DNA of 64,000 nucleotides, from contig OZ024746.1 in NCBI GenBank assembly GCA_964016885.1, forward strand, positions 66,216,001-66,280,000, in the 5' to 3' direction. Made by a program: the position numbers and the translations under genes. Under the pieces are notes generated by a model. That model had not been told where the DNA came from, did not search any database, and worked only from the letters and a program-made list of their open reading frames with translations. This DNA comes from Eledone cirrhosa. Taxonomy: Eukaryota. Positions 22,448 to 26,021 of the stretch are shown here, piece after piece (position 1 is the first letter of the stretch; the number at the start of each line of letters is the position of its first letter).

Positions 22448-23757
22448 ATGCCAACAAAATCGGATACATCTCTCATCAACACAAATGAAGAGATTCTACA
22501 GGAACTCAAGAAAAGTAACACCAACCTATCTGTGCTGGTCGACAAACTTGACTCCACAAATAAGGAAACCGTCACCGGATACAAACCCTCCGAAATCGTC
22601 GATAAACTCCAAAACCTTTGCGATACTATCCAAACTATATTCACTACTACCAACACAGGAAAAACCAACGAAGAACCATGTGAGATTGGTTCATACAAAA
22701 TGAAAATTCGAACAATTCCAAAATGGAACAAATCCCTCAGAGACAGAAAGTTCTCATTCTAGAAGATGATACAAAATCACAACAAAGCGGAGATATATGA
22801 AAAATGGGTTAACTCAACCCCTCTAACTCTCCCCCGTAAAATACAAATAAAGTCCATTCCAAATGAACTCGAACCTCAAAGACACCTTAGGGAAAGAATG
22901 GCATTGGAAAAAATGAAGACAGAAATTGAACTTCTTAAACTGAGGGCGCAGACAAATGAGGAAAAAATCAAAACCATCGATGAAGAGATCCTCCTGGAAA
23001 TCAACAATAAAACTGAAGGCTCCAAGGTAGAGAAGATCTCCAAATTATGGAAAGGGGACTGCAACAGAGAAGAACTGAAATGACTTCAACGCTGGGAAAA
23101 AGTGCCGCTTGGTTCCTACACTATGAATCGACTTTTCAAACGGATTACACCTCCAATAACCCGTTCATAAAAATAGGAAAACCCATAACTGAACCGCACA
23201 ACAACTTCGCAAACCCCCAAGCCACTAACAAACGAAGAAGGAAGCACCACACCGAAGATGAACTTCCCAACCTCGCTACCATAAGAAGGAACAAAAACGC
23301 TAGAAATCATCTCCCCCAGAATGACATTTACAACTTTCCCCCTTCAAGGAGACACCATACCAAATCACTCAACTACTACGCGGATGCCTCATCGTCAAGC
23401 ATAGGGAAAAGATACCACCACCATGATAGATGTAACAACTTCCCCGCTTCAAGGGGACAGCAAGGTAATTTCCATTTTCTCAACTCTCGCTTACACAATA
23501 CACAACAAACCCACACCACACGATACAACCAACAACGTAGGCCACTTATAACACTACAATACAACATGGCACATAGAAACACACACCCATACTCGCAGTA
23601 CAGGAACACCCCATTCAATCTACAACCACCAACCCGAACCACATTTTACAACAACAAGGAATATAACAAACACAGGAGACCACTAAATATCAGCAGACAA
23701 CCCCTCTACCCCAACCATTTTTTAGACACAGCACACAGATACAGGCAAGCACAATAA
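22448..23757 (+). pseudogene. PLE ORF1, ~436 codons reconstructed; helical/coiled-coil N-part and N/H/R/Q-rich low-complexity C-part
   Basis: ATG 22448 lies 28 nt after the 5' pLTR. Same frame through TAG 22760 (FSF*KMIQ) and TGA 23081, then a one-base shift in the A-run at ~23097-23101 into ORF 23047-23757. Heptad-like ERMALEKMKTEIELLKLRAQTNEEKIKTIDEEI. Confidence 0.7.
23718..23724 (+). promoter_or_regulatory. Candidate -1 ribosomal frameshift slippery heptamer T_TTT_TTA
   Basis: Phased X_XXY_YYZ in the ORF1 frame (CAT TTT TTA GAC). The -1 frame is the RT frame, open from 23667 with no Met before 23874. Confidence 0.6.
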
Positions 23758-26021
23758 CACAAGACAGGGAGGAGAAACCGATAGTAATAAAAATTATCAA
23801 TCTTACTAGTGCAGAACCAACACCCAAAGGTCTTAAATTCACACTGACCCTACTACGTCCTAACTACTATGAAATGAAGGAAGACATCACAGACTTCTGT
23901 AGAAAGTTACGACTCAGTGAAGAACTATTCGACCAGTACAATGAGGAAAAATCATTAGCCAGAAATAGAAGCAATTACACCCCATCAAAAGGTAGAAATA
24001 AAATCCTGGACAAATTCTGTGAACACATCACAAACATCCCTTACCAACACTTGCACAGACAAAAACACAAGCCAAACCTCAACAAGAAAGAATGGGAAGA
24101 ATTAAATAGATTAAAAACCGACAGAACCATTACAATTAAAGAGGCTGATAAAGGGAGTACAGTAGTCCTAATGGAGACAGAATTCTATATCAACTTAGCG
24201 CTCTCCACTTTGGAAAACGAAACATACTACGAAAAGGCTGAACACTACGATCAACAGAAAATTATGAGAAACCTAAAAACTCTGATCAACCAATACAAAG
24301 AAGGACTCACTAACAAGGAATTCAGCTTCATCACAGACTTCACAAGTAAATCCAGCCTTTTCTACGGTATCCCTAAAGTACATAAAAGCGAATTAATAAG
24401 TAAGGCATGCAAGGAAGCCACAGACATAGTCATCAATGTCCCCTCACCCAATGATCTCAAATTAAGACCTATAATAGCAGGCCCCGCTTGCGAAACTCAC
24501 CGCCTTAGCAACTTCATTGATACCCTTCTCAAGCCTTTTCTCAAACACATCAAAAGCTATATAAGGGACGACCTAGATATGCTCAATCACCTCCCTAATA
24601 TGCCACTTTCTGAACAAACCCTACTAGTGACGTTCGATGTAGTCAACCTATACTCCAACAACCCCCACAACCTAGGAATAGAAGCTATCCAATTCTGGCT
24701 GGATAATTACCACAATGAACTCCCACAACGCATCAAAAAAGAATTCGTGATAGAGGGACTCAAATTTATCTTGGAGAACAATTACTTCGTTTTTAATAAC
24801 AAACCCTACAGGCAGAAATCTGGGACCGCTATGGGAACGAAAACAGTCCCCACTTATGCCAACCTAGTCATGGGAAACCTGGAAATCACCCTCTACACTA
24901 AAGTCCTAAACAAATTTGGAAACACTCTCCACTTACACATAGAAAGGAACTGGAAGCGATATCTAGATGACTGCTTCATCCTTTGGCATGAAAACATCGA
25001 GAAACTTAAAGAATTTCACACCCTTATAAATGGGCTCAACACGAATATTAACTTCACGATGGAATACAGCCATCAACAACTCCCTTTCCTCGAGATCCTC
25101 ATTAAGATCCATAACAAAAAAATAGAAACAGACATATACTACAAGCCCACAGACTCCAAGCAATATCTTCCTTTCAACTCTTGCCACCCTAGACACGTTA
25201 AAATTAATATTCCCTACAACTTAGCCACTAGAATCTGTACTATAGTCTCCAATAAAAACACCTGCTACTTACGGCTACAAGAACTAAAGGACACACTCAT
25301 AGGCAGGGACTACCCTGCATCACTAATTGCCAATGGAATCCAACGTGCCCTAAAACTCAGTACCCATGACCTGAGACACCCTAAAGTAAATCAACCGAAA
25401 CTAAAAGCTCTTCCATACATCTCCACACACAACCCCCTCAACAATGAGGCATTTGACACCGTCCTCCAGAACATCCCTGTGTTGAAAAAGGACCATAGAA
25501 TGAACCAAATCCTACAAACACACGATATCATAAAGAGCAAAAGACAATCTAAGTCAATGAAAAACATCCTTACACATGCCAAAATACTGCCAACCACAAC
25601 AACGAAACCCACAGTAAAAAAATGTGATAGACCCAACTGTGGCATTTGCATCAACCTAATAGAGGGTTCGGAATTCTATTTCAAAGAAGGACAACGTTTT
25701 ATAGTAAAACACAATTTCACATGCGCATCAGAAAATCTAATATATGTATTAACTTGCTCAGGTTGTCGAGAACAATACATAGGCCAGACCAAAAACAGCC
25801 TCCGCCAACGCATGACTGTCCATAGATCCCAAATTAAAATACGGGAATACAGGAAAATACCACTGAGTGAACACATTGAGACCTGTGCCGCCCAAAATCA
25901 TCCCAACTTCAGAATCTTTCCCCTCTACAAATTTAAAGATAATGCCACCCACACCCAGCGCACCAGCAAGGAATCTTACTTAATTAACAAATACGGACCC
26001 CGTCTAAACACTTCTCCCTAA
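23721..26021 (+). CDS. PLE reverse transcriptase + GIY-YIG endonuclease (open frame; first Met at 23874)
   Basis: IINLTS..KGLKF upstream of Met; ADKG, FYGIPKVHK, LRPIIA, FDVVNLYSN, GTAMG, RYLDD, YYKPTD, YLPFNSCHP; KKCDRPNCGIC linker; NLIYVLTCSGCREQYIGQT..LRQRMTVH. Confidence 0.93.
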   Translation, partial: FRHSTQIQASTITQDREEKPIVIKIINLTSAEPTPKGLKFTLTLLRPNYYEMKEDITDFCRKLRLSEELFDQYNEEKSLARNRSNYTPSKGRNKILDKFCEHITNIPYQHLHRQKHKPNLNKKEWEELNRLKTDRTITIKEADKGSTVVLMETEFYINLALSTLENETYYEKAEHYDQQKIMRNLKTLINQYKEGLTNKEFSFITDFTSKSSLFYGIPKVHKSELISKACKEATDIVINVPSPNDLKLRPIIAGPACETHRLSNFIDTLLKPFLKHIKSYIRDDLDMLNHLPNMPLSEQTLLVTFDVVNLYSNNPHNLGIEAIQFWLDNYHNELPQRIKKEFVIEGLKFILENNYFVFNNKPYRQKSGTAMGTKTVPTYANLVMGNLEITLYTKVLNKFGNTLHLHIERNWKRYLDDCFILWHENIEKLKEFHTLINGLNTNINFTMEYSHQQLPFLEILIKIHNKKIETDIYYKPTDSKQYLPFNSCHPRHVKINIPYNLATRICTIVSNKNTCYLRLQELKDTLIGRDYPASLIANGIQRALKLSTHDLRHPKVNQPKLKALPYISTHNPLNNEAFDTVLQNIPVLKKDHRMNQILQTHDIIKSKRQSKSMKNILTHAKILPTTTTKPTVKKCDRPNCGICINLIEGSEFYFKEGQRFIVKHNFTCASENLIYVLTCSGCREQYIGQTKNSLRQRMTVHRSQIKIREYRKIPLSEHIETCAAQNHPNFRIFPLYKFKDNATHTQRTSKESYLINKYGPRLNTSP

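Follow-up and report, generated by a model that had tools for sequence, protein, structure and literature searches.

How does a Penelope-like element (PLE) produce its reverse transcriptase (RT) when the RT frame has no methionine codon ahead of its own conserved N-terminal motif? The question is raised by a 64,000-nt stretch of the Eledone cirrhosa genome (assembly GCA_964016885.1, contig OZ024746.1, positions 66,216,001 to 66,280,000 of the forward strand), in which a PLE lies at 21808-27466, flanked by two (TA)n runs. This whole stretch is called the window, and all coordinates count from its position 1. The element has two overlapping open reading frames (ORFs), ORF1 and an RT-endonuclease frame placed −1 to it, with the heptamer T TTT TTA in ORF1 phase inside the overlap. 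Comparison with relatives makes it very probable that −1 ribosomal frameshifting at this heptamer yields a minor ORF1-RT-endonuclease fusion. The window element itself is a damaged copy of a young, abundant two-ORF family of Neptune-type PLEs. The features of the element are as follows.

21808..22420, + strand: 5′ pseudo-LTR-like repeat (LTR, long terminal repeat), beginning after a (TA)n run; from repeat comparison
22448..23757, + strand: ORF1, 436 amino acids (aa) in whole copies, broken in the window copy
23664..23666, + strand: TAA stop closing the RT frame upstream in the window copy
23667..26021, + strand: RT-endonuclease frame, 784 codons, −1 relative to ORF1, first ATG at 23874
23718..23724, + strand: putative slippery heptamer T TTT TTA, Phe-Leu in ORF1 phase and Phe-Phe in the −1 frame
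23755..23757, + strand: ORF1 stop TAA, 12 codons from the slippery-site Phe, with 10 codons between Leu and stop
23793..23840, + strand: conserved RT N-terminal motif IINL...KGLKF, 5′ of the first Met, with a 21-nt gap in the window copy
25623..25649, + strand: CX4CxxC zinc-finger-like linker ahead of the endonuclease, a Neptune/Nematis mark; from translation
25737..26006, + strand: GIY-YIG endonuclease part (aa 691-780 of the RT frame); from translation and Pfam
26838..27466, + strand: 3′ pseudo-LTR-like repeat, followed by a (TA)n run; from repeat comparison

The two-frame junction in the window copy

An earlier note on this DNA had proposed that a phased slippery site joins an upstream ORF1 to the RT frame. 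Its coordinates proved exact when the sequence was reread: the heptamer falls in codons CAT TTT TTA of ORF1 (23716-23724), the RT frame opens after TAA 23664-23666 and holds no Met until 23874, and the motif, with IINL at 23793-23804 and KGLKF at 23826-23840, lies 5′ of that Met. The upstream frame that the note had described does belong to a genuine ORF1 with an in-phase heptamer, though the frame open in the window (23017-23757) is only the back half of the 436-aa protein. The note had further proposed to check whether the heptamer, the frame offset and an overlap of ∼90 nt are conserved; the first two are kept, while the overlap of 91 nt is peculiar to the window copy, the usual length in most copies being 70 nt. 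Three lesions mark the window copy: its ORF1 is interrupted by an early stop (22760-22762) and lacks 1 nt near 23101, and 21 nt are missing near 23827, inside the RT N-terminal motif.

Conservation of the layout in the genome

The family of the window copy, named family A, has 885 candidate sites in the 3.0-Gb genome when sought by its junction DNA and 5,105 when sought by its RT start. The 150 scored matches to it are 99-100% identical, and the family is young and abundant; the copies examined are the best-scoring ones, not a random sample. Among 55 distinct copies, the T6 run is present in 53, the ORF1 stop lies 12 codons from Phe in 53, and the RT frame has no Met before the IINL motif in 54. 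ORF1 and RT in a single frame, the contrary outcome named in the earlier note, is not the rule of the family: RT is in the −1 frame relative to ORF1 in 50 of the 55 copies. The whole 436-aa ORF1 is found in 13 of them. A later tally, over 125 loci, finds T6A kept in 61 of the 64 family-A junctions scored; the intact family-A ORF1 (T content 17%) contains no other T6 run. The −1 layout is, from these comparisons, not a defect of the window copy.

Three sister families, B, C and D, were found via the endonuclease fragment 20124-20597 and the ORF1 relative P0002. The RTs of families A-D are 48-59% identical to one another. Each of B, C and D has a homologous ORF1 of 400-449 aa, an RT in the −1 frame, T TTT TTA 21-29 codons ahead of the xIN[LI] motif and this heptamer as the only T6 run in ORF1; the junctions have T6A in 18/20 (B), 15/16 (C) and 21/22 (D) cases. 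Queries with P0001, P0009, P0035 and the RT start of locus L107 gave only families A-D among the 26 loci classified.

Fused-frame copies of 739-1,289 codons also occur in the genome (L085, L086, L087 and L101; G000:C3:109896592, C1:238048766 and C4:310483671). In those examined, the cause was a change in the length of a C run, different in each copy.

Relatives outside the genome

Five contigs from elsewhere extend the comparison to nine lineages with DNA (families A-D, L106, L107, L108, L109 and L138). The heptamer reads T TTT TTR in ORF1 phase, with RT in −1, in all nine, including 5/5 of the outside contigs (TTA in three, TTG in two); the phased joining of ORF1 to the −1 RT frame that the earlier note had read in one copy thus extends to 9/9 lineages. 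L106-L109 come from five metagenome loci and show the upstream ORF and the junction; the fifth, L110, is degraded, lacks ORF1 and was not counted. L138, from a contig filed under a bacterial genome, was the only one of 16 further loci close and long enough to cover the junction, four (L137, L139-L141) being without the 5′ end and the other 11 distant (23-27%). The ORF1 profile scores L106, L107, L109 and L138, while L108 was likened to L109 by eye only. The −1 frame of L106 and of L109 is closed by a stop immediately 5′ of the heptamer; in L109, where ORF1 ends 5 codons after it, the whole overlap is 19 nt and starts with the heptamer. Distant PLEs (L142, L144 and L145, 24-26% identity) have one long frame instead of two.

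ORF1 patterns found no match in metagenome contigs, and a scan of viral contigs gave one false match, then none. Where ORF1 relatives have a named host, it is Mytilus edulis or Pinctada imbricata. Several PLE contigs and proteins are filed under bacterial genomes or symbiont names (L138, L137, L139-L152; P0177, P0206, P0215, P0219, P0262 and P0278). These probably represent host sequence that ended up in the bins, a difficulty that PMC8557442 also points out.

The two frames in protein databases

The ORF1 profile matches 964 representatives of 50% clusters, 497 of them at 1e-10. The best 150 of the 964 are all 706 aa or shorter, and so none of these is fused to an RT. Near-full-length proteins (330-560 aa) among the best 150 number 84 and are divergent; in 71 of them Phe-Leu occurs 12-42 residues from the C-terminus, as against 5/84 and 6/84 in control windows upstream. 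When families A-D are included and all ORF1 proteins with a long tail are considered, 86 of 109 have Phe-Leu within the last 60 residues. On the other side of the junction, lengths of 633-803 aa were found for the best 120 among 692 RT relatives (up to 1313 was allowed). Three pairs of ORF1 tail and RT start proteins are codon-compatible in a −1 overlap of 7-11 codons, with 0 null matches.

Four proteins (P0036, P0063, P0044 and P0062) have Phe-Arg or Phe-Phe where their neighbours have Phe-Leu; either the slippery site itself may vary there, or the copies may have been read through a natural indel.

Probable frameshifting and its alternatives

The conserved RT motif lies 5′ of any Met in 8/9 lineages, and ribosomes must therefore enter from upstream or by an unusual start. 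The junction has the canonical form of a −1 site, X XXY YYZ in the phase of the upstream ORF and inside the overlap, with both site and phase conserved. Ribosomes would slip back one base at U UUU UUA, presumably by tandem slippage of the Phe and Leu tRNAs, and so enter the RT-endonuclease frame to make a fusion protein of ∼1,200 aa; most would stop 12 codons after the slippery site, releasing ORF1 alone. A gag-pol-like excess of ORF1 over enzyme would result. The term 'gag-pol-like' used in the earlier note suits this predicted expression logic; fold searches with ORF1 gave generic helices only. Only ribosomal slippage explains both the fixed phase and the fixed −1 offset.

Several observations weigh against this reading. 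Phe-Leu is missing in 23 of the 109 long-tail ORF1 proteins, some of which may be truncated or variant. Family D has frame changes in a neighbouring C run in 10/22 sampled copies, so that only 12/22 keep the frame downstream (four loci of that sample had been picked for their long frames), and it has a Met at −1 codon 13, ahead of the RT motif. A Met at that codon is also present in one of the three codon-compatible protein pairs (P0012/P0171). To these are added the splice-like signals described next and the lack of a predicted RNA fold, considered in the following section.

Splicing is one alternative: the T run with AG would be a 3′ splice acceptor, and RT would be made from a spliced RNA joining a donor in the upstream ORF1 to the RT frame. 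AG stands directly 3′ of T6 in 6/9 lineages, the first AG is in RT phase 2 in 8/9, as would be the case for an acceptor, the residue after Phe-Leu has a G-starting codon in 60/86 proteins, and PLEs are described as carrying introns (PMC8557442). Such an acceptor needs no fixed offset between ORF1 and RT, yet the offset is −1 in 9/9 lineages, with Phe-Leu in ORF1 phase in 86/109 proteins. B, L106 and L138 are without an adjacent AG, 26/86 proteins cannot have AG directly after the T run, and the ORF1s of A-D have no phase-matched donor of the pattern GTRAG, the only one sought. Contigs of three sequencing runs (kind unrecorded) contain no GT-AG joint, one contig being unbroken across the junction; this counts neither for nor against splicing. 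We regard splicing as very unlikely.

Termination-reinitiation or internal initiation near the ORF1 stop could also make RT, the U run then serving as a signal that holds the ribosome. A suitable codon exists at −1 position 13 in some cases (ATG in D, GTG in C, ATA in A and L107), P0171 begins with Met at that very codon, and the called start is 5′ of the motif in 44/120 RT relatives by a strict pattern. Set against these, no Met precedes the motif in 8/9 lineages with DNA or in 54/55 family-A copies, and the ORF1 stops of three cases with 12-codon spacing (TAA or TAG) give ATA and not ATG. Moreover, whatever the spacing between 12 and 42 codons, the U run stays in codon phase, which a signal acting by distance only would not need. 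This leaves initiation near the stop very unlikely.

Stuttering of RNA polymerase or of the element's own RT in U6, adding one base and so placing a few RNAs or copies in frame, has a slim chance. One of the 55 family-A copies (L040) does have T7, with ORF1 and RT in one open fused frame, and fused family-D copies exist. The fused D copies, though, arise in the adjacent C run of varied length and not in the T run; T5 copies are as frequent as T7; and stuttering would require neither the codon phase nor the terminal purine that T TTT TTR shows in 9/9 lineages. A copy-specific indel or assembly error in a truly single-ORF element, suggested by the three other lesions of the window copy, is refuted and dismissed: ORF1 and RT are separate frames in 50/55 copies, in all four families, in the five outside contigs and in the best protein matches (150 for ORF1, 120 for RT).

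Candidate stimulators of the proposed shift

Sites of −1 frameshifting normally need a downstream fold, in the canonical case a hairpin or pseudoknot 5-9 nt away. The earlier note saw no obvious 3′ stimulatory hairpin in the window copy, and this holds for all nine lineages, none having a fold that beats shuffled sequences. ViennaRNA on 40-100 nt downstream gave z from −1.74 to +1.66 in 8 lineages for a stimulatory hairpin or pseudoknot, and a scan for simple hairpins and pseudoknots found 9 lineages no better than shuffles; both results tell against frameshifting of the usual kind. The family-A junction folds at 0 kcal/mol over 50 nt, and an Rfam scan for a stimulator returned only microsatellite artefacts under gathering scores. 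These structure scans cover local folds.

A different regularity was found in the position of the ORF1 stop. In 86 proteins it is never less than 12 codons from Phe, and it is at exactly 12 in 27/86, on many branches (displayed on a FastTree tree without support values) and with unrelated tail peptides. At the background stop rate of 0.067 per codon the empty ten-codon zone has P ∼3e-5 for 15 lineages assumed independent, with no formal correction for kinship. A 10-codon periodicity of the spacing (12, 22, 32 and 42) was considered and rejected, as 23/59 longer spacings fall within one codon of it, which is near chance, and the peaks are clade clusters.

Three kinds of stimulation can be considered. 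A bare heptamer might work at low efficiency with no stimulator, which is conceivable, although we would not count on it. Much the same may be said of a bound protein or of long-range pairing. The third, which we favour, involves the ribosome that terminates at the ORF1 stop, roughly one ribosome length further on: it would block the path, and a trailing ribosome queued on U UUU UUA would slip back. The preference is a tentative one, the idea being doubtful in itself, and the stimulator is the least certain part of the account. 80S ribosomes in disomes are spaced about ten codons apart. PMC6815119 describes E. coli reporters in which stalling of one ribosome at UGA increased −1 shifting by the ribosome behind it on a slippery heptad, most strongly with 9 codons between A-sites; family A has ten codons between Leu and the ORF1 stop, against that peak at 9.

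This collision step also faces contrary evidence. The stop is at 5 codons in L108 and L109 and beyond 12 codons in 59/86 proteins. In B, C, D, L107 and L138 it coincides with the Ile/Val codons that open the RT motif, and the 12-codon peak could thus arise without selection on the stop. This mundane cause is incomplete, because family A and P0034/P0183 keep a spacing of 12 though their motif is 25 and 20 codons away.

As a separate observation, a stop has been gained or lost at one exact place: one clade has Trp at codon 13 from Phe, where family A stops, and then a basic tail of 8-15 residues (L075:2418-2487, L089:2031-2097; P0002, P0006, P0007 and P0012).

The ORF1 protein

Intact ORF1 matches no Pfam family, and no capsid, zinc-knuckle or esterase match was found there. 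AlphaFold2 with six sequences predicts confident long helices at residues ∼77-233 and a disordered tail (mean predicted local distance difference test score, pLDDT, 58); the tail is basic, rich in N, H and R, and predicted disordered. Foldseek with this model gave no match at E 0.001, and in fold comparison the best Z, 8.8, was to generic three-helix bundles, other matches being generic helices as well; such a lack of specific matches does not establish a new fold. Language-model features place ORF1 nearest to Gag/PNMA clusters at 0.80-0.85, which is under 0.9 and a lead only. A role of ORF1 in RNA packaging, as for the ORF1 proteins of other retrotransposons, may be supposed. The idea that ORF1 is a split-off N-terminal domain of single-ORF PLEs was not supported, with hhalign probabilities of 0.2-0.3% against five outgroup N-termini (the template alignment is shallow).

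Comparison with known elements

The earlier note had called the element endonuclease-positive and Neptune-type, and its domain layout agrees. GIY-YIG (PF01541) is found at aa 691-780 with E 2.2e-6, above the Pfam cut-off; RVT_1, at aa 265-452 with E 1.9e-4, is below the curated cut-off, and the PLE-type RT motifs xINLS...KGLKF and DKG are present in the translation and fall in invariant alignment columns. The C-terminal endonuclease has CCHH cysteines between GIY and YIG, IYVLTCSGCREQYIG. With the Neptune clade of endonuclease-positive PLEs, as portrayed in PMC8557442, the element shares the order RT then GIY-YIG, the latter C-terminal and with CxxC between its GIY and YIG parts, as well as a CX2-5CxxC linker, pseudo-LTRs and insertion beside (TA)n. 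It also shares the long spacer between linker and GIY, unlike Nematis, as compared by eye with rows of Fig. S2 of that paper; Naiad has the same long spacer, but its endonuclease is N-terminal. The linker is given as a Neptune/Nematis mark in PMC3846280 too, and its pattern occurs in 98/120 RT relatives. Neptune is called paraphyletic in PMC8557442.

The pseudo-LTRs stand in the tandem or partial-tandem arrangement known for endonuclease-positive PLEs, with direct repeats 88% identical in one segment (21856-22420 and 26948-27466) and 94% in a second (21808-21871 and 26838-26901). Canonical endonuclease-positive PLEs are described as single-ORF in PMC8557442, PMC6515669 and PMC11167929, which bears out what the earlier note had stated, and two-ORF PLEs are described as lacking an endonuclease (PMC6431247). 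Here RT and endonuclease do share one frame, but the single ORF is replaced by two, a separate conserved ORF1 (∼400-450 aa) overlapping RT at a phased heptamer. The consensus of a killifish Neptune comprises two ORFs, of 420 and 2004 nt, that do not overlap, and the part of PMC12602865 consulted speaks of no frameshift. In fish and molluscs an esterase can be part of Neptune-like PLEs (PMC5408684); the ORF1 studied here has no match to one. The supplement of PMC8557442, in its accessible part, mentions ORF1 only for two Chlamys families.

Three further systems are close in one respect or another. The legend of Fig. 1 in PMC8557442 speaks of a PLE ORF1 separated by a frameshift with a pseudoknot; a helical ORF1 5′ of a PLE RT, joined to it by a frameshift, is common to both cases, likened by description only. 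Our element differs in having an endonuclease, thousands of dispersed chromosomal candidate sites and no predicted pseudoknot. The frameshift-pseudoknot PLEs are presumably the endonuclease-lacking Athena clade. HIV-1 gag-pol (PMC5009743) has the same U_UUU_UUA in the same phase and a structural-type ORF ahead of an enzyme ORF in −1; the element has no predicted downstream stem-loop, its ORF1 has no capsid or zinc-knuckle match, and it is neither an LTR element nor a virus. With the synthetic bacterial reporters of Smith et al. 2019 (PMC6815119) the element shares a slippery heptamer at a set distance in codons ahead of a 0-frame stop; in those reporters no RNA fold was required. In SARS-CoV-2 (Bhatt et al. 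2021, PMC8168617) the stop position likewise tunes shifting, the stop there helping the pseudoknot to refold.

Titles and the beginnings of abstracts yielded no natural eukaryotic case with a terminating ribosome as stimulator. Titles, beginnings of abstracts and passages yielded no endonuclease-positive PLE with the phased-heptamer layout; Repbase/Dfam, the Athena/Terminon papers and bioRxiv supplements lie outside this scope and may hold a mention. The words 'Penelope' and 'Athena' do not occur in 300,000 of the 449,034 characters of the frameshifting review PMC5009743.

Other features of the window

A 5′-truncated family-B copy lies between inverted repeats at 19770-21130, with its endonuclease frame at 20124-20597, and both inverted repeats contain a motif resembling a hammerhead core (20977-20999, + strand; 19896-19918, − strand). 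A query from this endonuclease frame has 28,705 candidates in the genome. Family-B copies (L063, L064, L072 and paired matches) often adjoin other PLEs or form close inverted pairs a few kb apart. Pseudo-LTRs of endonuclease-positive PLEs characteristically hold a hammerhead ribozyme motif; for the pseudo-LTR of the window element itself, neither Rfam nor a simple core pattern matched one, though minimal forms of the ribozyme may be missed by either search.

The 3′ untranslated part of the element has an 83-nt direct repeat (94%) at 26231-26510. An intron in the 5′ untranslated region, as in other PLEs, could run from a donor-like CAG|GTAGAA within the 5′ repeat to an AG 3 bp 5′ of the ORF1 ATG (22177-22444); family B has a similar donor-like site, and none was found in C and D with the pattern used. 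At 3233-6166 a long frame interrupted by stops, with RT motifs of the non-LTR type, belongs to an unrelated retrotransposon.

Implications

The layout described here is, as far as the compared sequences tell, a family-wide and deeply conserved two-ORF variant of Neptune-type PLEs. The single-ORF picture of endonuclease-positive PLEs would accordingly be revised for a large, recently active clade (964 ORF1 cluster representatives), an ORF1 family without a Pfam model is defined, and the truncated annotated starts of these RTs find an explanation. The clade also offers dozens of natural, divergent frameshift cassettes with no predicted RNA fold, which allow the terminating ribosome to be tested as a eukaryotic −1 stimulator. 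It may be, though the odds are against it, that a widespread clade of endonuclease-positive PLEs, at least in molluscs, uses a natural structure-free −1 shift with the terminating ribosome as roadblock; if so, enzyme output would rise with ribosome load on the element's own RNA.

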